DNA from: a virus
Lineage: Duplodnaviria; Caudoviricetes
Strand: one strand, 5' to 3'
Virus record (IMG/VR): IMGVR_UViG_2908446538_000001
Coordinates: 1 to 64,000 of that record
DNA length: 64,000 bases
In this document: positions 1,246-17,612 of the stretch, piece by piece
How the letters are laid out: every line of letters starts with the position of its first letter
Position numbering within the stretch: position 1 is the stretch's first letter
Program-made: the position numbers and the translations under genes
Notes under the pieces: generated by a model
The model's database searches: none
What the model saw: the letters and a program-made list of their open reading frames with translations, nothing else
What the model was told of the DNA's origin: nothing

Positions 1246-1604
1246 TGTCCTGCGCCCGCTGGCGCTGTGAGTGATGCGATACGCTCCTGAGCATCAGCGC
1301 ATGTTTCTTCACTGGTATGACAGATGCCGTCATGCGGGCAGTGCGCGTTCCTGCTGTTATTGGTCCGCTGGGCATCCTGCGACAGCATCGTGTCAATGTC
1401 TTTGGTCAGAAGAGTCCATTGATTCTCGCCAATTGCGCCGCGCGCCAGTCGCAACAACCCTTCCATGGTATCCGCCAGCTCATCCGCTGCGGCCAGGCGC
1501 TGTTGCAAGGCGTCACGCTCACGGATCGCCTGAGCGTGCTTGCCGCGCCAGTGCAGCACGGCGTCCAGTTCTTCAACTGTTTGAATTACCTTGATCATAC
1601 TCAA
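1242..1604 (-). CDS. Hypothetical phage protein (coiled coil)
   Basis: ORF in tightly packed minus-strand operon. Confidence 0.6.
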   Translation of the reverse strand: MSMIKVIQTVEELDAVLHWRGKHAQAIRERDALQQRLAAADELADTMEGLLRLARGAIGENQWTLLTKDIDTMLSQDAQRTNNSRNAHCPHDGICHTSEETCADAQERIASLTAPAGAGQ

Positions 1605-1608
1605 AACC

Positions 1609-2136
1609 TCAATTGTCTGTGCCGGTGTAGGTGCGCCATGGCACCTTCACGCCGTTGACCAGAAAGCCCCAGTCACCACGCCACTTGCTGGTGATGAAGA
1701 GGGTGTAGACGCCGCCGGGCGAGACTTCATCGATTCGGTGGTACTCCCCGTGCCGCAGGCTCGCGGTATCGCCAGGCTCTCGCCAGTAATTAATGTCGGG
1801 GTGTCCTCCGGACTCCCATGTATGCCGGCGCTGCTCTTTGTAGAAGCCGCGCAGGATGACGGTGCGGGCGTTCCAAGGGTGGTCGTGCAGGTCCTGGTCT
1901 TGGTCGTGCCGCATGATGTGGTGGATGCGGAACGACCACGGGCACCACCACAGCGCAGGTTTGTGCGTTTCGCGGGAGTAGGGGTTGAACAGCCACCAGC
2001 GGCCCATGTACATCTCGGAGCCGTCGGCGGACATGATGTGCAGGTAAGGGGTGCGCTGGGCGCGGGCGATTAGCCAGGCGGCAACCGCCGGACGCGCAAG
2101 CAGCTTGGCAACCAGGCGCCAGAACAGGTTGATCAC
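1609..2136 (-). CDS. Phage protein with cupin-like His motifs
   Basis: RIHHIMRHDQDQDLHDHPW and YHRIDEV motifs. Confidence 0.6.
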   Translation of the reverse strand: MINLFWRLVAKLLARPAVAAWLIARAQRTPYLHIMSADGSEMYMGRWWLFNPYSRETHKPALWWCPWSFRIHHIMRHDQDQDLHDHPWNARTVILRGFYKEQRRHTWESGGHPDINYWREPGDTASLRHGEYHRIDEVSPGGVYTLFITSKWRGDWGFLVNGVKVPWRTYTGTDN

Positions 2137-2181
2137 GGGGAGTCCTTACCGGGCCATGCCCGGGCGGTGGAGTGGGGGGAG

Positions 2182-3345
2182 TTACTTCTTCTGGAAAGTT
2201 TTCGTCAGTCCAGCGTTGATGCTGTTGCCGCGCTTCAGCACGACGCGGGCGAGTGCTGCCCGGTCCGTGTGGCTGTGACTGGCCTGGCTGAGCAGGCCGA
2301 AGTAGCTATTGGCGGTCTCACGGATATCCTCAGCCGGCGCCTCAGCGGTGCGCTTCAGCGCCTGGCCGAGGGAACGCTTGCGGGTGGTTCGCCGCCACGG
2401 CTTGATGACGTGGCCGACGAAGTCGACGCCGCGATCCACGGGCTGCAAGATTGTCTTCGTGGGGTTCAGCTTCGCGCCGAGCCTGGGCAGGAACGCTTCG
2501 ACCTCGGCCAGCCACTGGTTGAGCTGCTGCGGCGACTCATGCAGGAACACGAAGTCATCGACGTACCGGATGTAGTGCTTGGCACGTAGCTGGTGCTTGG
2601 CGAACTGGTCCAGGGCGTCGAGGTAGACGTTGGCGAAGAACTGCGAAGACAGGTTGCCGATCGGCAGGCCAAGTCGCGCGGGTTGCGCAACCAGCCGCTT
2701 GTGCTGCGGCACCCGGTTGAACAGGTGCGCCGGGCTGCGGGTCTCGTAATCCTCGCGCGGGTCGTGCATGAGGATCTGCGTGGCCAGGGCCAGCCACCAG
2801 GGTTCGATGATCTTGACCTCCAGTTGCTTGCGCAGCACCGCCTTGTCGATGGCGACGAAGAAGTTGGCCAGGTCGCACTTGAGGTAGAAGACCGGCTTCG
2901 ACCAGTTCTCGCTGGCGCTGCGGATCTTCGATTCAAGGCGGGTCGCGGCGTACAGCGTGCCGCGCCCTGGAATGCATGCGCAACTATCCGCTATGAAGCT
3001 GGCGTAGAAGCGCGGTGCCACATGGTTGTACATGAGGTGGTGGACGACGCGGTCCCGAAAAGCTGCGGCCCAAACCTCGCGGGCTTTCGGACGGGTGACC
3101 ACGAAACAAATGGATCGGCCTGGCCGGTAAGTGCCGGCAATCAGGTCGTCGTGCAGCTCCAGCAAGTTGATCTCCATGTCTTTCTCGAACAGCCGAGCGC
3201 TTGCGGAATTCCGCTTGTTGCGTCGGCAGTCGTAGTAAGCCTGGACAAGATCCTCGAACTGGAAGGGAGCAACACTTAAATCTGCGGACAGGGCGCGCGA
3301 GCCGCTCGTTGTTCTTGTCGTTGTTGTTGAGCCAGCCATCTTCAA
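2182..3345 (-). CDS. DGR-type reverse transcriptase (exact start uncertain; 5' end overlaps TR)
   Basis: RT motifs AFRDRVVHH, GLPIGNLSSQFFANVYL, YIRYVDD; adjacent Avd and TR. Confidence 0.95.
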   Translation of the reverse strand: MKMAGSTTTTRTTSGSRALSADLSVAPFQFEDLVQAYYDCRRNKRNSASARLFEKDMEINLLELHDDLIAGTYRPGRSICFVVTRPKAREVWAAAFRDRVVHHLMYNHVAPRFYASFIADSCACIPGRGTLYAATRLESKIRSASENWSKPVFYLKCDLANFFVAIDKAVLRKQLEVKIIEPWWLALATQILMHDPREDYETRSPAHLFNRVPQHKRLVAQPARLGLPIGNLSSQFFANVYLDALDQFAKHQLRAKHYIRYVDDFVFLHESPQQLNQWLAEVEAFLPRLGAKLNPTKTILQPVDRGVDFVGHVIKPWRRTTRKRSLGQALKRTAEAPAEDIRETANSYFGLLSQASHSHTDRAALARVVLKRGNSINAGLTKTFQKK

Positions 3346-3381
3346 AGTCCATGTTGTAGGCGTTGTTGGCGGAGCGCTGCG
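3282..3381 (-). repeat. DGR template repeat (TR), ~100 nt
   Basis: Identical to two gene-terminal repeats except at adenines of the minus strand; 28 adenines and 8 AAC codons in the VR frame (SQRSANNAYNMDFEDGWLNNNDKNNERLARPVR). Confidence 0.95.
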
Positions 3382-3551
3382 ACCTGTCGAGCTATCTACA
3401 TCGCCAAACCGAAGGCAGTGCCGATCAGCTTGGAAACTGCGCGAGACCTACGCGGACGCTTTAGACCGGCGGTTTCTGTTGTGCGCATGGCGGTGACCCA
3501 GAGGTCAGCGGCTCGACCAGATTTGGCGCACAGGCAAGAGGGCCTTGACCC

Positions 3552-3905
3552 TCAAGCAGCGGGCGCGGTTGCGGATTTCTTCCAGGCGTTCGCCTGGCGG
3601 CCAACTGAGGCCGTCATCATCATCGCCTTGGCGTGTTGTCCCTTGCTGATCAACCCTCGGTTCGTGAGGGCGCGCAGCAAGTAGTTCAGCATCCAGATGC
3701 TTTCCAACAGGAGGTTGATGTGCGGTAGCTTCTCCCGGGTCATATTGGCCCGACCGATCAGCACCAGGACCTGCAAGCATTCGTCCCGGATCTTTGCCCC
3801 GACAACCTGTTTCAGGTCGCGCGGGATATTGCGCACCAGGTCGAGCGAAAGCCCGAGCAATTCCTCGGCTACCTTGTGGATTTCCAAATCCGTATGCAGC
3901 GCCAT
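3552..3905 (-). CDS. avd: DGR accessory variability determinant (four-helix bundle)
   Basis: 117 aa, helical, ends GRQANAWKK; lies between target genes and TR/RT. Confidence 0.85.
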   Translation of the reverse strand: MALHTDLEIHKVAEELLGLSLDLVRNIPRDLKQVVGAKIRDECLQVLVLIGRANMTREKLPHINLLLESIWMLNYLLRALTNRGLISKGQHAKAMMMTASVGRQANAWKKSATAPAA

Positions 3906-3927
3906 CCCTGGCCTCCCTGAAAAGCGA

Positions 3928-3943
3928 GGGTGCTATCGCACCC
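3928..3943 (-). promoter_or_regulatory. Hairpin/cruciform downstream of VR1
   Basis: GGGTGC-GATA-GCACCC, 20 nt past the target stop codon. Confidence 0.6.
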
Positions 3944-3963
3944 ATGAATGAAGAATTGAATGA

Positions 3964-4557
3964 TCAAATAAACTTTCTGCGGACAGGGCGCGCGAGCCGC
4001 TCGTTGACCTTGCCGTCGTAGTAGAGCCAGCCAACTCCAAAGTCCATGCCGTAGGCGCCGTTGGCGGAGCGCTGCGAACTGGTCCAGTGGTAAGCCTGGG
4101 TGAACACCTCTGGTACGGTGATTTCAAGGAAGGACGCCTCACGACGCGCCATCAGGTAGAAGTCCTTGTGCCCGTCGCGCTCGAATGCGGCGCAAAACTG
4201 AGCGGCGGGGTGGTCATGCTCCCTATTGGTACTTGTCAGGTACGCGGTGTTCGCCTGTCCATCCCATGGGGATTTGGCGCCTTCGAGCTCCTGGCCGTAG
4301 CCACCCCACTCAAGGGTGGACTCAGCATCTGCGCCCGTCGGCACGATCAGGTAGTAGGGCTTGTCGCCCCCAGGAAACAGGCCGCCGTTGATTCCACCTT
4401 CGCCGGGCCAGCACTCGCCGACGGCGGGGATGCTGCTTGCCGCAATGGCTGGGGCGGAGGCGATGGCCAGGGTTGCCAGTTTCAGCACCACCCCTTCGTC
4501 CGGGCTGCTGATAGTCAGATCGCCACGGGTGTACGTGGTCAGTTCATTGGCGCGCAT
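3964..4557 (-). CDS. DGR target protein 1, DUF1566-like (C-type-lectin-like fold inferred)
   Basis: Start MRANELTTY with AGGAG; ends HWTSSQRSANGAYGMDFGVGWLYYDGKVNERLARPVRRKFI. Confidence 0.85.
   Translation of the reverse strand: MRANELTTYTRGDLTISSPDEGVVLKLATLAIASAPAIAASSIPAVGECWPGEGGINGGLFPGGDKPYYLIVPTGADAESTLEWGGYGQELEGAKSPWDGQANTAYLTSTNREHDHPAAQFCAAFERDGHKDFYLMARREASFLEITVPEVFTQAYHWTSSQRSANGAYGMDFGVGWLYYDGKVNERLARPVRRKFI
3977..4076 (-). repeat. DGR variable repeat VR1
   Basis: 12 mismatches to TR by manual alignment, all at TR adenines (8 A>G, 4 A>T). Confidence 0.95.
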
Positions 4558-4620
4558 GAGATGCTCCTGTGAGCGAGATAAGTTGCAGGTAGCCGGCGCT
4601 TCCCGACGAGCTTCTGGTCT

Positions 4621-4639
4621 GAGCGCCGTCCTGGCGCTC
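4621..4639 (-). promoter_or_regulatory. Hairpin/cruciform downstream of VR2
   Basis: GAGCGCC-AGGAC-GGCGCTC, ~38 nt past the stop codon. Confidence 0.5.
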
Positions 4640-4676
4640 CCGGGAATCACCTGCGAAAAACGATTGAAGGAATGAA

Positions 4677-5153
4677 TTACTGAATAGGGAGGCTGCGGAC
4701 AGGGCGCGCGAGCCGCTCGGTGAGCTTGGCGTCGTGGTAGAGCCAGCCATCTACAAAGTCCATGGTGTAGGCGGTGTTGGCGGAGCGCTGCGTACTCAGC
4801 CAGTGCCACCGGTCTTCGCGCAGTTCCAACAGGCCATCAGCCTTGGCCGCCATCACTAATTGACCTTCCAGGCATGACGGGATGAAGCCATCCATCTCCA
4901 GGGCCTTGATGGCGATCACGCTGCCGGCCTCGGCCATGGCGCGGGTGTTGGCTTCGCCATCGCTGTAGCTGCCGGCACCTTTGATCTCGACGCCATACTC
5001 ACCCCACGGGCCGCTGAGCTCGTCAGCCAGGAGGATCAGGGCACGCTCGACGCCGTTGAGCCAGTAGCGGGTAACGAACACGCCACCGGCCAGAGGTTGG
5101 CCGCGCTCGGGGAGTTCGGCGGCGAGTACTGTTTGCTGTGCTTGCTTGGTCAT
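4677..5153 (-). CDS. DGR target protein 2, DUF1566-like
   Basis: DGEANTRAM motif; ends HWLSTQRSANTAYTMDFVDGWLYHDAKLTERLARPVRSLPIQ. Confidence 0.85.
   Translation of the reverse strand: MTKQAQQTVLAAELPERGQPLAGGVFVTRYWLNGVERALILLADELSGPWGEYGVEIKGAGSYSDGEANTRAMAEAGSVIAIKALEMDGFIPSCLEGQLVMAAKADGLLELREDRWHWLSTQRSANTAYTMDFVDGWLYHDAKLTERLARPVRSLPIQ
4693..4792 (-). repeat. DGR variable repeat VR2
   Basis: 10 mismatches to TR, all at TR adenines (6 A>C, 3 A>T, 1 A>G). Confidence 0.95.
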
Positions 5154-5213
5154 GGGGTTACTCCGGGTAAGCGCCGCCCTCCGATTACCGGATGCAGCGA
5201 GTAGGGTGGGTTG

Positions 5214-5702
5214 TCAGTCGTTCTCGCCGTCGTCTTCGGCGTTCATTTGGATCGATTCGGCAAAGCCTGTTTGCCGTAATTTGCGCGCCACGTTTTCGGT
5301 TATCTCATAACCGTGGCGCTTAATTTCGAAGAGTGGCGCTGACTTCTCGGCACCCAGCGAGTGGGCATGCGCGATCAGGCGCCAGATGGTCGCCCGATCC
5401 TTCGTCTCGCCCAGTTCGGCGGAGAGCGCCGCCAACCGGTCACGCATGGCCTGCCGGAAGTAGTGTCGGATGATGTCGGACGGCCCTTTGACTTTCGGCG
5501 GCGCCGGCGGCATATCCTCGGCCCGTCCATTCAGCACCAGCAGTTGCACCGCTTCGCTGACTTCCTCTATCTCATGCCAGCGCATCAACTCGCCGAGCAT
5601 CTGCCGGGTGCCGTGCGGGACTGTGTGCCGCAATTCCTGCTCGCCCAGTTCCTGCCGTTTCTCGGCAAGTTTGGCTGTGCGCTCTTTCTGTTCGGCAGCC
5701 AT
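5214..5702 (-). CDS. Hypothetical phage protein
   Basis: 162-aa ORF with GAGG RBS in early operon. Confidence 0.65.
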   Translation of the reverse strand: MAAEQKERTAKLAEKRQELGEQELRHTVPHGTRQMLGELMRWHEIEEVSEAVQLLVLNGRAEDMPPAPPKVKGPSDIIRHYFRQAMRDRLAALSAELGETKDRATIWRLIAHAHSLGAEKSAPLFEIKRHGYEITENVARKLRQTGFAESIQMNAEDDGEND

Positions 5703-5771
5703 GGCCTACCTCTTCTATTCCGCTGGCCGGCAGTGCGAGCCAGGTTTGACGTTTACGTTGCTGGGTGCGGG

Positions 5772-6365
5772 CTATGCGGCGCATGAAGTGCTGCCCTGGC
5801 GCGCTTTCGGGTAGTCGATGCCGTGGGCGGCGATGATCCGCTCGAAGGCCTTGTTGCCGATTGCCAGCTTCCCGCAGCACTGGCGCCGGGAAATACCGAG
5901 TTCCTTGAAGGCCTTGATGCGCTCAGCGAACTTCGCATCGCGTTCCTCATCGACCGCGTTGTGCACCAAGTTCCTGGCGCCGCCTCTGGTGGGCGCTTTG
6001 AACGTGATGTCGTACCGCTCGGCGTGGTTGTAGATGAGTCGCCGGCTGACACCAAGGGCTGCCGCTACCTCGGTCTGGGTATGCGTGACACCCAGCTGGC
6101 GTATCTGCTCAGTCAGCTTGATTCTGGCCTGGGTGCGAATATCGTTTTTGTCGAGAGGCAGGGGGTCCGCCTCAACCCGCCGCCGAACAAACGGCTTCGG
6201 CGCCGGCGGCATCTGGTTACTGTAGGTGATGGGCTTGGGCTTGTAGTTGTAAGCCGGGGCCTGTTCGATCTCGCCGCCGGCTGCCACGAACTCGGCGACC
6301 TGAGCCGCCAGTTCGTCCGATGCTGGCCGTAGTGCCTCGACCAGGCTTAGGTGGTTGCTGATCAT
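5772..6365 (-). CDS. Phage protein with two HTH-like segments
   Basis: TQTEVAAALGVSRRLI and GISRRQCCGKLAIG. Confidence 0.6.
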   Translation of the reverse strand: MISNHLSLVEALRPASDELAAQVAEFVAAGGEIEQAPAYNYKPKPITYSNQMPPAPKPFVRRRVEADPLPLDKNDIRTQARIKLTEQIRQLGVTHTQTEVAAALGVSRRLIYNHAERYDITFKAPTRGGARNLVHNAVDEERDAKFAERIKAFKELGISRRQCCGKLAIGNKAFERIIAAHGIDYPKARQGSTSCAA

Positions 6366-7129
6366 GCTGCCTTACTCCTGAGCGCTGCCTCGTACCCGTC
6401 GACCAGCAGTTTGAATTCCCACAGGTCTTCTTCAAGGCTTTCGATGTAGTCGTCGTCGCGCTGGAATTCTTTCCACCAGAGCTGGCGGCCCACCGGCTTC
6501 AACAGCGGGCAGTACATCCCGATGTGCCACCACTTCCGGTCGGTGATCCACATACAACCCTGCACCTGGTCGATGACTTCGCTGGCGTCGTTGTCGATGT
6601 GGAAGGACCTGAGCTTGTCAGGCGCCAGGAAGCACTTATATTCGGAGCCACCGTCGTCGCCGATGAATCCATCTGCGCTGGCGCCAAACACGCCATCATC
6701 TGTTTTGACCAATCCGACCTGTGTAACGATGAGGCCGGTTTGGATTTCGTGCTCCATTCGCGCTTCGGGTTCCAGTTCGTGGCCCCGGCGCATCTGCCAA
6801 GTCTCGAAACCGCCGTCCAGCGGCACGCCGCCGATGCGTTCGACGGCCAACTCAAAGGCGTAGGAGAGCGCGGCGTTTGAGGGTTCACCAACCTTCTCGC
6901 CGTCCAGTGCGCGCAACACAACTTCAGCCCTTGGCGCGGCTTTGTAGCCGGCCAATTCTCGCGAGCGGGCCTCGCTATATCCGTTCAGCATCGCATTCAC
7001 ATAGGTTTGCTGCTGCGAGGTCAGTCCGTTCACCTTGGATCGGGCCGTGCTGAACATGCTTGCGGTGATGACGCCGGCGCGGGCCTGCAGCCACTCGGCT
7101 GAGCCCTGAGTGCAATTCACGATGATCAT
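6362..7129 (-). CDS. YqaJ/lambda-exonuclease family recombination nuclease
   Basis: QGSAEWLQARAGVITAS, RGHELEPEAR, GASADG, EYKC, QVQGCMW. Confidence 0.9.
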   Translation of the reverse strand: MIIVNCTQGSAEWLQARAGVITASMFSTARSKVNGLTSQQQTYVNAMLNGYSEARSRELAGYKAAPRAEVVLRALDGEKVGEPSNAALSYAFELAVERIGGVPLDGGFETWQMRRGHELEPEARMEHEIQTGLIVTQVGLVKTDDGVFGASADGFIGDDGGSEYKCFLAPDKLRSFHIDNDASEVIDQVQGCMWITDRKWWHIGMYCPLLKPVGRQLWWKEFQRDDDYIESLEEDLWEFKLLVDGYEAALRSKAA

Positions 7130-7884
7130 TGAGGTGCCTCCAGCTTGGCTTTGTGGACGGTGACCGCAGTCTTCACTGTGGAATACCCGTTGGTGTCACC
7201 TGACGCCTGCAGGACTTTCAGGCTTGCCTGCCAAACGTCCTTCAGCTCATCCGGTGTAGTGGTCTGCCCGACACGCTCCAGGATGTCCGCGACGACCTGG
7301 GCGCGCATATCCTCCGTTTCTGAACCGTCCGAAGACTGCCCGTCGTCGTCGCGACTCTCGCCGGTCGTGATGTTCAGCAGTGCACACATCACGTACCGTT
7401 TGCCGTAGGTAGTCGATGATCCGACGGCCTGTACATCGTTACGGCCTTTGCCGATATCGATCGGTAGGCTCATGGTCGTTTGCTCTCGGTGACCACCCCG
7501 ATGCATCAAGATTCCAGTGACGCTGATCGCCTTTTCAGCGTTTTCCACCTTGAAGGTAATGGCGAATCCGTGCTGCTGCATGATCGGTTTCAGGGTGTGG
7601 GTGATGTGGTCGAGCGTGGCGTAGGAGTTTCCTGTGTGCAGGTTTACCGCGCCCTCGAAAACCGTGGGGATGTTGCACTGCATTTCGGCCATCGCAGCGT
7701 TGAAAGCTTGCTCAGCCTCCTTGGCCTGCATGCGCTCATGCATGGCCAGAAGACGCTCCATCTTTTCGATGTCGCAGGTTGGATCGGCGGCAGCACGGCT
7801 GATGACGGCCATGATGCTGTTGTCCGTGGAGATCGGTGCCATAGCCTGGCGCCGCTGTTCGGGAACGATGATTTGGCCGCTCAT
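7126..7884 (-). CDS. ERF-family single-strand annealing protein
   Basis: YATLDHI and QAVGSSTTYGKRY...LNITTGE.DDDG motifs. Confidence 0.85.
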   Translation of the reverse strand: MSGQIIVPEQRRQAMAPISTDNSIMAVISRAAADPTCDIEKMERLLAMHERMQAKEAEQAFNAAMAEMQCNIPTVFEGAVNLHTGNSYATLDHITHTLKPIMQQHGFAITFKVENAEKAISVTGILMHRGGHREQTTMSLPIDIGKGRNDVQAVGSSTTYGKRYVMCALLNITTGESRDDDGQSSDGSETEDMRAQVVADILERVGQTTTPDELKDVWQASLKVLQASGDTNGYSTVKTAVTVHKAKLEAPQ

Positions 7885-12749: not shown

Positions 12750-13373
12750 TCAGTCGGTAATGGGGGGATACTTGCCGCTCACCGAGTCCCTGTAAACGAT
12801 CTCGCTGAATAGCCTGGGGCCGTCGCGCATCGTGACCATGGCTTGCTTGGCTTCTTCCTTCGTTTCGAATGGGCCGGCACCCACAGCTAGGCCAATCATT
12901 GAAACGACCGGAAGCCCGCTACTGGTAATGGCTTCAATGGTTCGCTGCTGCTCTTCTTCGTCACGGCAGGCAGTTGATGCGACCCACCCATTTTTAAGGC
13001 GCGGGGCGGCTACTGGCTCAACATCAGCGCCGCAGTGCTTGCATTTGATGGCCGCGCATTTGATCGTCTCGGCACAGTAAGGGCAGGCGCGATCACCGGA
13101 TACGACAAGGCCCTGCGAACTTTTTTCGGCTGGGCTTTCTGTGTTTGCTGAGGAAGCCCACACCAAGGCTGCAACCCAGCCCAGGAATGTCCACCCCAAG
13201 AGCAGGTTCACCAGAAAGATCGAGGTGAAGTTGACGTGCTTGCGATTCGAAGCAACGAACGTAGGCAGGAAATAGATGACAAAGGCAGCCACAAGAAGAA
13301 CAAAGCCAGCCCAAGGGCTTCCACTATCCATATCGTAAACCTGATCCATTGAATTGAGCTCGCACTCTACCAT
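12750..13373 (-). CDS. Superinfection immunity (T4 Imm-like) domain + zinc ribbon + SPOR-like C-terminus
   Basis: IYFLPTFVA..RKH.N..SIFLVNLLLGWTFLGWVAALVWA; CPYCAE...CKHCG; start may be ~13331. Confidence 0.8.
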   Translation of the reverse strand: MVECELNSMDQVYDMDSGSPWAGFVLLVAAFVIYFLPTFVASNRKHVNFTSIFLVNLLLGWTFLGWVAALVWASSANTESPAEKSSQGLVVSGDRACPYCAETIKCAAIKCKHCGADVEPVAAPRLKNGWVASTACRDEEEQQRTIEAITSSGLPVVSMIGLAVGAGPFETKEEAKQAMVTMRDGPRLFSEIVYRDSVSGKYPPITD

Positions 13374-16561: not shown

Positions 16562-17284
16562 TTAGCGGGCGTACATTCCCCACCAGAACACGTGCCCTAG
16601 GATGCCGATCTGCTCATCCTGCATCTGCTGGAAGCTATAGTCCTCATCCGGGTGATCGTCGCGGTTGAAGCTTCGCAACCTGATCCCTGATGGAAGCCTG
16701 AAAACCTGTTTAACACGCATCTGGCCATTATGGTTTATGGCGTATAGGTCGCCATCGATGATGTCGCCCAGGCTCGTTTTGCCCAAGTCGATGCCCACCG
16801 TTGCGCCATCGCGCAACACCGGGGTCATGCTGTTGCCACGGACCGTCACGCACTTGGCGTTGCTGAACTGAACGCCGTTTTCGCGAAGGTTCTTCTTGCG
16901 GAAGCGAAGGCTTTCCCCCTCGTCCTCCTGAATGACAAAGCGGCCCGATCCTGCGGCCAGTTCGACTTCGCGCAGAAATGGAACCTCAACCTCGTCATCG
17001 TCGAGCGGGGTCTTTTCGTCCCAGCCATCAATAGCCTTCATGGAGCTGGCATTCGAGTCAGGCGCGGTTCGGCCCGTTTCACCAGGACCGCCATCTATTA
17101 AGTAGCCCATCGAAGTGCCGAGGGCCTCAGCCAGGTCGCCCAGCTTGCTATTCCGTGGCGTAGAGACGCCAGCCTCCCACTTCTGGACAGCCTGAGGGCT
17201 CAGCCCCAAACGACGGGCCAACTCCGACTGGCTAAGGCCTGCCGCCTCTCTTTTTTGCGCGATGCGCTCACCGATATTTTTCAT
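16562..17284 (-). CDS. cI: CI repressor (HTH + S24 autopeptidase)
   Basis: N-terminal HTH (LSQSELARRLGLSPQAVQKWE), AAG cleavage site, GNSM and VK catalytic motifs; start MKNIGERI. Confidence 0.92.
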   Translation of the reverse strand: MKNIGERIAQKREAAGLSQSELARRLGLSPQAVQKWEAGVSTPRNSKLGDLAEALGTSMGYLIDGGPGETGRTAPDSNASSMKAIDGWDEKTPLDDDEVEVPFLREVELAAGSGRFVIQEDEGESLRFRKKNLRENGVQFSNAKCVTVRGNSMTPVLRDGATVGIDLGKTSLGDIIDGDLYAINHNGQMRVKQVFRLPSGIRLRSFNRDDHPDEDYSFQQMQDEQIGILGHVFWWGMYAR

Positions 17285-17294
17285 CGCCGAATCA

Positions 17295-17375
17295 TACAAA
17301 CAACGGTTGTAGATGTAATTGCGAATTTGAGTTGTAGATAAATACGTCCATGGGTTAACCTTAGGTTGTAGCTGT
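17295..17375. promoter_or_regulatory. OR region / divergent PR-PRM
   Basis: GTTGTAG at 17306, 17331, 17365; TACAA-N7-TTGTA palindrome at 17295. Confidence 0.65.
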
Positions 17376-17390
17376 AACTTTGAGGTGCGT

Positions 17391-17612
17391 ATGACGCAGA
17401 CAGCAATCCAGAAGGCCGCGAAAGCTGCCGGCGGCCAATCCGCCTTAGCCCGGTCACTGAAGGTCACGCCACAAGCAGTGCAGAAGATGTGCGCCACCGG
17501 GCGCGTTCCTGCTGAGCGAGTGCTGGAGATCGAGAAATTAACCGGGGTTCATCGCTCTGAGCTGCGCCCAGACCTTTACCCGCCAAGGGTGAAAAGGCCG
17601 CAGGCAGCGTAA
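17391..17612 (+). CDS. cro: Cro-like repressor (YdaS type)
   Basis: AGGQSALARSLKVTPQAVQK...GVHRSELRPDLY; divergent from cI. Confidence 0.88.
   Translation: MTQTAIQKAAKAAGGQSALARSLKVTPQAVQKMCATGRVPAERVLEIEKLTGVHRSELRPDLYPPRVKRPQAA

Follow-up and report, generated by a model that had tools for sequence, protein, structure and literature searches.

A lambda-like prophage of Pseudomonas carries a complete diversity-generating retroelement (DGR) in its leftward, cI-side early region. The two genes that end in its variable repeats (VRs) each code for a minimal stand-alone protein of C-type-lectin (CLec) fold. The prophage is integrated beside mutS in a 6.8-Mb Pseudomonas chromosome and was analysed over 64,000 nucleotides (the window); its integrase gene lies 1.1-2.1 kb past the left edge of the window, adjoining mutS.

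Organization of the retroelement and genomic setting

The DGR components are all on the minus strand and comprise target B, target A, a bAvd accessory protein, an RT-15 RNA, a 101-nt template repeat (TR) and a DGR-type reverse transcriptase (RT). The features of the region are the following:

16562..17497, minus strand, CI-like repressor that heads the leftward region (context)
7884..7126, minus strand, ERF annealase (Pfam match), upstream of the DGR
7129..6362, minus strand, YqaJ exonuclease (Pfam match), upstream of the DGR
4677..5153, minus strand, target B, 158 aa, stand-alone CLec-fold protein (DUF1566/Lcl_C-like)
4692..4792, minus strand, VR-B
4660..4685, minus strand, AT-rich motif 3' of VR-B
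3964..4557, minus strand, target A, 197 aa, N-terminal module followed by a DUF1566-like lectin domain
3976..4076, minus strand, VR-A
3940..3970, minus strand, AT-rich motif 3' of VR-A
3928..3943, minus strand, GC hairpin with T-rich tail between target A and avd
3552..3905, minus strand, Avd, 117 aa
3380..3568, minus strand, RT-15 structured RNA
3281..3381, minus strand, TR
2182..3339 (or start 3345), minus strand, DGR reverse transcriptase

Both targets are encoded on the cI-proximal leftward strand, with ERF and the YqaJ exonuclease upstream and int downstream, which agrees with the original prediction that they lie on the early side and outside the structural genes. The structural genes occupy 28-53 kb on the opposite strand, with the tail genes at 41-53 kb. 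A scan for sigma-70 promoters over positions 1500-6500 found none, and terminator-like sites in the same region do not exceed the level of chance. Searches of PADLOC and NCBIfam assigned no family to the targets, to the three downstream ORFs or, upstream, to two out of three ORFs. An HTH protein in the neighbourhood has weak, sub-threshold matches, and no known defence or anti-defence family was matched among targets or neighbours in these two collections.

Reverse transcriptase, Avd and RT-15 RNA

The RT translation features YVDD and GLPIGNLSSQ, in accordance with the YxDD and [I/L]GxxxSQ motifs of the DGR clade. The protein matches Pfam RVT_1 (E 1.3e-15) and phrog_1423 (E 8e-116), its best solved relative is bRT from the Bordetella phage (8ub7, E 1.2e-37), and no match to a defence-type RT model comes near that model's cut-off. 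The only in-frame starts upstream of the conserved amino terminus (FEDLVQAYYDCRRNKR) are ATG 3339 and TTG 3345, both inside the TR.

Avd matches PF22296 bAvd above the Pfam cut-off of 40 bits (51.5 bits, E 1.6e-13) and NCBIfam DivGenRetAVD under NCBI's 80-bit cut-off (48.3 bits, E 1e-12). A longer overlapping ORF (3945..3505) was rejected as Avd, being in the wrong frame and having no profile matches; 3905..3552 is correct. The RT-15 RNA (Rfam RF03018) extends over the avd 3' end and the spacer, stopping at the first TR bases. Its match is full length (1-192) and reaches 171 bits for a gathering score of 82 (E 3e-42). Motifs, profiles and repeats all confirm the initial identification of a complete DGR with RT, Avd and a 100-nt TR.

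Template and variable repeats

The TR spans 100-101 nt and has 29 adenines and eight AAC codons in the target frame, while VR-A and VR-B form the final 33 codons of their respective genes. VR-A differs from the TR at 12 positions (8 A>G and 4 A>T) and VR-B at 10 (6 A>C, 3 A>T and 1 A>G), reproducing the counts first reported for this DNA, with an A>C at the boundary base as a possible eleventh change in VR-B. Every mismatch is found at a TR adenine (12/12 in VR-A, 10-11/10-11 in VR-B) and there are 0 non-A differences over 101-102 nt. That the differences are confined to adenines and distinct between the two VRs supports independent diversification of the two targets, as had been proposed.

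The 26-nt GC-rich 3' end of the repeat is identical in the TR and both VRs, whose sequences diverge directly beyond it, and it occurs exactly 3 times in the window (0 expected). Only three TR-like copies are present in the whole 6.8-Mb genome, all at 3.2-4.8 kb; J and the tail fibre are therefore devoid of a TR copy, as noted at the outset. An alignment of 10 VR flanks taken from 5 elements shows an AT-rich 3' flank that is common to the VRs and missing from TRs. In the present element it reads ATCATTCAATTCTTCATTCAT after VR-A, as placed by the flank alignment, and is TAATTCATTCCTTCAATC-like after VR-B, where it spans the stop codon; it is absent after the TR.

The hairpin found between target A and avd (GGGTGC-GATA-GCACCC) can be read as terminator-like or as belonging to a DGR target site. 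The VRs are followed by weak GC hairpins (z -2.4 and -0.9), and in related phages they follow only some VRs. Since they are missing after the VRs of phages Haboob and phPA-G, the GC hairpin was dropped as a candidate and is not proposed as a conserved recognition element.

Target proteins

A ribosome-binding site precedes both genes (GGAG 8 nt before the ATG of target B, AGGAG before that of target A). The two proteins match phrog_4245 (target A, E 1.7e-29; target B, E 1.3e-23, in its C-terminal part) and are 43% identical over residues 79-194. The AF2 model of target B (pLDDT 97.2, pTM 0.91) confidently predicts a DUF1566/Lcl-type CLec fold whose C-terminal strands contain the VR. This is the fold that the original prediction expected, and the model does not bear out its concern that VR residues might be buried. 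Structural matches are Lcl (8q4e, Z 13.1), Mtd (1yu0, Z 7.2) and TvpA (2y3c, Z 7.1). The model of target A, built from an alignment of 119 near-identical homologues, is poor (pLDDT 44.5), so that its CLec assignment rests on homology to target B.

The term DUF1566-like, initially given to both targets, is justified by fold and relatives but not by the Pfam threshold. Target A scores 17.1 bits with PF07603 Lcl_C (E 0.007) for a gathering cut-off of 34.9, and target B has no match to this profile (DUF1566). Lcl_C is matched by 39 of 63 relatives, and the family profile matches Lcl 8q4e with an E value of 1e-7. Together with the fold match, this makes the targets divergent DUF1566 relatives rather than threshold members. 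The close structural relatives are all surface adhesins (Lcl, a Bacteroides fimbrial protein and a Bdellovibrio fibre tip), and in BFVD the same lectin domain caps tail-fibre-like proteins.

A-type targets have a conserved amino-terminal module of ~45 aa, a beta-hairpin followed by an Ala/Pro-rich helix or linker, which could be a docking peptide. Searches with the first 46 residues of A-type targets had no match in the ESM Atlas, nor among proteins longer than 345 aa, and B-type targets have no amino-terminal module at all. Hydropathy analysis of 13 family members recognised no signal peptide, as predicted, and no membrane helix; a signal- or TM-grade amino-terminal segment is not conserved across the family by this measure. 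The amino-terminal helix of target A reaches a KD19 of 1.79. As a candidate membrane anchor this borderline hydrophobic stretch was discarded, Glu being present there in 20 of 119 homologues and the equivalent Haboob segment being acidic. Family members have 0-2 cysteines.

Variation among homologues

Variability was assessed in 119 close homologues of target A and 120 of target B. In VR-A (aa 166-185) seven of the eight AAC codons have an entropy of 3.0-3.4 bits, and aa 166 has one of 2.2; in VR-B seven of eight likewise have 3.0-3.4 bits, the first has 2.3 and non-A codons have ~0. Only the AAC codons are hypervariable among the ~120 homologues of each target, with 11-14 residue types each, and the mean entropy of target B outside the VR is 0.23 bits. 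Nearly all residues at AAC codons (1894/1896) are reachable from AAC by A-to-N changes. Identity is 96-97% in the scaffold versus 67-74% in the VR part, and the closest homologues, at 85-91% identity, differ nearly only at A-codons. Such A-codon-only hypervariability in both targets is what the original prediction opposed to an inactive relic, and it indicates that the DGR is active in the lineage and that both tips are hypervariable in natural populations.

With six other A-containing codons besides the eight AAC codons, each target has ~10^13 possible tips. Tyr (TAC) accounts for 22% and Ile (ATC) for 2% of the residues at AAC codons, each one A>T change away, and Pro is absent. The bias for Tyr over Ile and the missing Pro suggest that selection acts on the target tips.

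Related phages, orphan targets and distribution

The same cassette is found in four isolated Pseudomonas phages (Haboob, phPA-G, Cruim01 and SC_8_H2H8_2017), with two tandem targets and A-only differences. The RT-Avd region is 68-83% identical at the nucleotide level to that of these four phages and of Burkholderia phage Magia. Haboob and phPA-G have one common TR and different VRs. Targets are positioned on the early side also in Haboob, phPA-G, Cruim01 and Medea1, and a third target of Cruim01 adjoins its repressor (10/10 mismatches at adenines). A DGR goes unmentioned in the Cruim01 and phPA-G papers. Phages D3, FBPa42 and Medea1 keep orphan targets without an intact RT, Medea1 retaining no more than a remnant of it. 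D3 and FBPa42 have a B-type target in common, and their virion modules give 0 tblastx matches to each other.

The cassette type is common: 300 sampled Pseudomonas species genomes yielded a closely related RT in 21 and a target homologue in 27, 7 of these 27 having no match to the present RT (E <= 1e-60). One of the genomes counted here, G099, is unpublished. The tblastn matches in jumbo phages (Paride and others) sit on the strand opposite to the annotated genes.

Comparison with known systems

The DGR of Bordetella phage BPP-1 (mtd-avd-TR-brt) has the gene order target-avd-TR-RT in common with the present one. The likeness extends to the RT, related to bRT, to the bAvd-family accessory protein, to the adenine-only differences and to the VR at the carboxyl terminus of a CLec fold. 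The BPP-1 target, however, is a single 381-aa trimeric tail-fibre-tip protein of the late/tail module, while the two targets found here are short and encoded in the early region. The present element also differs in having RT-15 5' of the TR and an RT ORF that starts inside the TR, with no separate TR-RT spacer, and its VR-specific element is the AT-rich flank and not a hairpin directly after the IMH.

The novelty of the element is limited and was overstated in the original prediction, its type being already catalogued. About half of the targets of the DUF1566 class (CLec2, 'category d') are short DUF1566-only proteins, and two targets are present in 13% of DGRs (Wu et al. 2018, PMC5758913). 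Legionella LdtA (PMC5758913) has its VR in a DUF1566-like domain as well, but is an exported surface lipoprotein in a cellular/ICE context, unlike the present targets, which show no export signal and belong to a phage early region. In Quimbyvirus a defence-related island holds a second target of the DGR, one that is not structural (Benler et al. 2021, PMC8008677). This CLec target outside the structural module, interpreted there as a phage-host conflict factor, resembles those described here. Quimbyvirus nonetheless keeps a structural target too, whereas there is none here. The two also differ in host phylum and in type of phage, and the relatives of the present phage are cultured. Short target ORFs were also described for the Magia DGR, with a suggested change of host range (PMC7883833), in a paper silent on where the targets lie. 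Beyond phages, cellular DGRs diversify intracellular CLec sensors, namely cyanobacterial regulators (PMC7517822) and putative antigen sensors of multicellular bacteria (PMC10907252). The likeness is a diversified tip on proteins thought to be intracellular and engaged in conflict or signalling; according to the abstracts those sensors are part of cell-encoded regulatory/conflict systems, while the present targets are bare phage-encoded lectin domains.

Proposed mechanism and role of the targets

Adenine-misreading mutagenesis of TR-derived cDNA by RT-Avd is established for the DGR family. As in the rest of the family, transcription across avd, RT-15 and the TR would yield a structured template RNA, and the RT-Avd complex would copy the TR into cDNA, misreading its adenines. 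The cDNA would then replace the homologous last 33 codons of both upstream genes, with the invariant 26-nt GC-rich 3' end and the VR-specific AT-rich flank as its probable guides.

The targets are probably soluble, non-virion products, made early after infection or induction, that serve as variable binders where phage and host, or one phage and another, are in conflict (counter-defence, host takeover or exclusion). The non-virion role is the better-supported reading because the targets show no export signal, are encoded in the early region and are found as RT-less orphans in phages with unrelated virion modules; their cellular location and ligand are matters of inference. More tentatively, the bare lectin domains may constitute an intracellular, antibody-like pair of hypervariable binders, regenerated in each lytic round, that neutralises variable host defence proteins or components of rival phages.

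The canonical fold by which DGR targets bind receptors is CLec/DUF1566, all of the closest structures belong to adhesins, and the tips, rich in Tyr, Asp, Ser and Gly, resemble binding sites. Such features would suit tropism-switching accessories made from the early region and attached to the virion, for example through the conserved amino-terminal module of A-type targets, or otherwise receptor-binding like Mtd in BPP-1. That role is unlikely, since the module is wholly missing from B-type targets and was not seen fused to a longer protein, while near-identical B-type scaffolds occur across phages with unrelated virion modules. A receptor-binding protein of the Mtd kind is encoded in the tail module and has amino-terminal trimerisation/attachment domains; the present targets lack Mtd's trimerising domains, and their genes, on the early strand at 4-5 kb, are 23-49 kb away from the structural module, which is on the other strand. 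It is quite improbable, too, that they leave the cell at lysis, or through some unrecognised export route, and act extracellularly without being virion parts, for instance on glycans of neighbours or debris. Relatives of the fold have extracellular ligands, and proteins so small, soluble and poor in cysteines could function after release; yet hydropathy gives no export signal, early rather than late placement is unlike that of a lysis-timed product, and no precedent was found in the literature searched.

Loss of the DGR with retention of the target is common (D3, FBPa42, Medea1 and 7/27 genomes), and in this prophage the cassette could be an inert passenger whose VR differences are historical, with no current diversified function. 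This is very unlikely given that all its parts are intact (a full-length RT with YVDD, Avd and RT-15 at 171 bits), that the non-A bases of the TR match both VRs exactly and that the nearest homologues, with 85-91% identity, differ almost only at A-codons.

Significance

Phage DGR biology is taught through a single case, tropism switching by a tail fibre, and the present cassette type never touches a structural gene. It is carried by phages of P. aeruginosa and P. syringae that are cultured and tractable, so that the gain from randomising a small non-virion lectin is directly testable, and the orphan targets of D3, FBPa42 and Medea1 can serve as natural 'frozen' variants to compare with. If the two lectins do act as an antibody-like pair, a virus would be using a DGR for counter-defence or exclusion and not for receptor choice. 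Should their ligand be a host defence protein or a protein of a rival phage, the cassette would represent a new mode of viral counter-adaptation and also, at ~150 aa, a compact natural scaffold on which binders could be evolved.

Organization of the prophage and of its DGR cassette

The prophage extends from an integrase adjoining mutS, just left of the window, to lysis genes near 54 kb. The integrase abuts mutS (L011:3245-6865, host genome left of the window), so the prophage occupies a mutS-flanking site. All features of the diversity-generating retroelement (DGR) lie on the minus strand, in the 5' to 3' order target B, target A, hairpin, avd, RT-15 RNA, template repeat (TR) and reverse transcriptase (RT).

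Features of the DGR cassette and of the prophage (window positions)
5153..4677, minus: target B, 158 aa
4557..3964, minus: target A, 197 aa
3940-3970 and 4660-4685, minus: AT-rich motif flanking the variable repeats (VRs)
3943..3928, minus: short GC hairpin
3905..3552, minus: avd, 117 aa
3568..3380, minus: RT-15 RNA match (Rfam, 171 bits)
3381..3281, minus: TR
down to 2182, minus: RT, with GLPIGNLSSQ and YVDD motifs
17497..16562, minus: CI-like repressor
from 18.3 kb, plus: antirepressor and replication genes
28.1 kb: terminase
32.9 kb: capsid
41.5 kb: tape measure
47.5-51.0 kb: J
52.0-52.8 kb: tail fibre

The diversification machinery is that of a standard DGR. The RT matches RVT_1 (Pfam) and phrog_1423, its nearest solved structure being the Bordetella phage bRT (8ub7, E 1.2e-37). 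The Avd product exceeds the family cut-off of Pfam bAvd and matches the NCBIfam DGR Avd model with E 1e-12 and 48.3 bits, under that model's 80-bit cut-off.

The DGR shares its strand with the repressor. ERF and the YqaJ exonuclease lie upstream of it and int downstream, a gene order that places it in the accessory part of the leftward early region. A promoter scan of the DGR region found none. Two genes upstream of target B, an early protein (5772-6365, minus) combines a helix-turn-helix with a SutA-like RNA-polymerase-binding segment (PF20661, E 8e-7, slightly under cut-off) and may be a host-transcription takeover factor. Another leftward-region ORF (12750-13373, minus) matches phrog_1039, 'immunity to superinfection' (E 6e-25).

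Template and variable repeats

Gap-free comparison of the TR with the VRs that end the two targets reproduces the mismatch counts of the original prediction: VR-A differs at 12 positions (8 A>G, 4 A>T) and VR-B at 10 (6 A>C, 3 A>T, 1 A>G), and the boundary base adds a further A>C in VR-B. Every difference falls at a TR adenine, all non-A bases being identical across 101-102 nt. The unchanging 26-nt 3' end has three copies in the window and none in 100 shuffles. The complete 6.83-Mb genome holds three TR occurrences and no additional target paralogue, and therefore no structural or remote target, which agrees with the original prediction, where no TR copy was seen in J or the tail fibre.

The Rfam RT-15 match runs from the 3' end of avd across the spacer to the first TR bases. 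As TR/VR homology starts there, the structured part of the template RNA that Rfam recognises is located 5' of the TR. This differs from BPP-1, whose well-known spacer is 3' of the TR. No stop codon interrupts the RT frame within the TR (3281-3345, minus). No start codon occurs in this frame between the TR and the conserved RT amino terminus, and the sole in-frame starts upstream of the latter, ATG 3339 and TTG 3345, are both within the TR. Translation of RT probably starts at ATG 3339; the RT of Cruim01 is likewise annotated from within the TR, while that of Haboob starts at a GTG directly after it.

Across the window and loci L001, L002, L003, L007 and L012 (the last from Cruim01), an AT-rich motif resembling TAATTCATTCATTCAATC follows 10/10 VRs in five elements, reaching past the stop codon, and is absent after every TR. 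The motif is a candidate for a VR-specific element involved in recognition or directionality. GC hairpins are present 3' of some VRs only.

Fold and variability of the target proteins

The model of target B, built with 62 diverse relatives, is confident (pLDDT 97.2, pTM 0.91) and bears out the expected C-type-lectin fold. Its best structural match, the carboxyl-terminal domain of Legionella Lcl that is the archetypal DUF1566 domain, superposes at 2.3 A over 113 residues (Z 13.1). Further matches are a fimbrial protein of Bacteroides (Z 12.3), the fibre-tip domain of a Bdellovibrio protein (Z 10.5) and dozens of C-type-lectin-like domains, among them two DGR proteins, Mtd and TvpA (Z ~7). The family profile finds Lcl with E 1e-7. 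The 'DUF1566-like' label thus holds by the fold of target B and by the relatives (39/63 match Pfam Lcl_C), but neither target A nor target B reaches Pfam's own Lcl_C cut-off. VR-B covers the carboxyl-terminal strands of target B (residues 121-154), which is also where other DGR targets carry their VR. Target A is a paralogue, 43% identical over the lectin part, that carries an extra conserved amino-terminal module of ~45 aa.

Activity was judged from homologue populations, since one genome cannot show it. Among 119 target A homologues (78-90% identity, from fluorescens-group genomes and metagenomes), entropy is 3.0-3.4 bits at seven of the eight AAC codons and 2.2 at the first, with 8-13 residue types; it is middling at GAN, ATG and TAC codons and ~0 at non-A codons. 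The pattern is the same in 120 target B homologues, where mean entropy outside the VR is 0.23 bits. Residues at AAC codons are attainable from AAC by A-to-N changes in 1894/1896 cases. Tyr reaches 22% and Ile just 2% although each is one A>T away, and Pro is absent (0%), so the tips are under selection as well as mutation. The spectra of the two targets are near-equal (Asp 12-15%, Asn 12-13%, Ser 11-12%, Gly 9-11%), and their paratope-like composition implies similar selection on both tips.

The same two-target cassette, again with A-only differences, is found in four isolated phages, Haboob, phPA-G, Cruim01 and SC_8_H2H8_2017. Scaffolds of the compared targets are 96-97% identical and the VR parts just 67-74%; Haboob and phPA-G have a common TR, yet their VRs differ. 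Hypervariability at A-containing codons in the homologue populations, together with A-only differences in the isolated phages, thus speaks against an inactive relic at the level of the lineage.

Relatives in other phages and genomes

Haboob, phPA-G and Cruim01 have in common the early-side position of the cassette. Cruim01 encodes a third, remote target 8.8 kb upstream, near the C2 repressor (L012:3001-3600; PP179333.1 43578-44177), with 10/10 differences from the TR at adenines and 45 amino-terminal residues closely resembling those of the window's target A.

Target homologues without a DGR are encoded just beyond the repressor in D3 (L008:4707-5384) and FBPa42 (L010:3896-4384), which have no RT. 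Medea1 has two in tandem following ERF-YqaJ-SSB (L009:4992-6300), and of its RT just a 48-aa carboxyl-terminal remnant with a stop is left. The scaffolds of these targets are 88-97% identical to the scaffolds in DGR-bearing phages. They are orphaned and frozen, because the RT is gone while the tips still differ at variable positions. D3 and FBPa42 both carry a B-type protein, yet tblastx comparison of their virion modules gave no match; the B-type gene thus travels with early regions rather than with any one tail.

In a sample of 300 Pseudomonas species genomes (counts include unpublished genome G099), 27 encode a target homologue, 21 a closely related RT, 20 both and 7 targets only. In Paride and related 287-kb jumbo phages, a tblastn lectin-domain match (33% identical; L027:4001-4375), opposite in strand to annotated small genes, may be an unannotated gene.

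Role of the targets

The balance of genomic evidence favours the targets being soluble, non-virion binders that are made early and act in conflicts between phage and host or between phages, a role that we infer with somewhat better than even confidence. The predicted lack of a signal peptide is borne out by 13 family members, in which neither a signal-like amino terminus nor a conserved hydrophobic stretch is present; each has 0-2 cysteines. No defence-family match was found for the targets and their neighbours. Attachment to the virion or an extracellular location, taken jointly, is rather unlikely. They retain some weight because the close structural relatives are all extracellular adhesins and the A-type amino-terminal module of ~45 aa has no assigned role.

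DUF1566-class targets account for 14% of DGRs, half being short DUF1566-only proteins, and two-target cassettes for 13% (Wu et al. 2018, PMC5758913). DGRs are frequent in Pseudomonas (Yan et al. 2019), and short target ORFs are noted in the announcement of phage Magia (PMC7883833). Phage DGR targets described before were structural according to Benler et al. (2021, PMC8008677), who located a Quimbyvirus target in a defence-related island; Roux et al. (2021) sorted viral targets as structural or unknown only. Publications describing Cruim01 and phPA-G make no mention of a DGR. Since DUF1566-class, two-target, non-structural and short-target DGRs are already published, the cassette represents no novel type of system; it is a clean new member of a catalogued, functionally unexplored DGR class.
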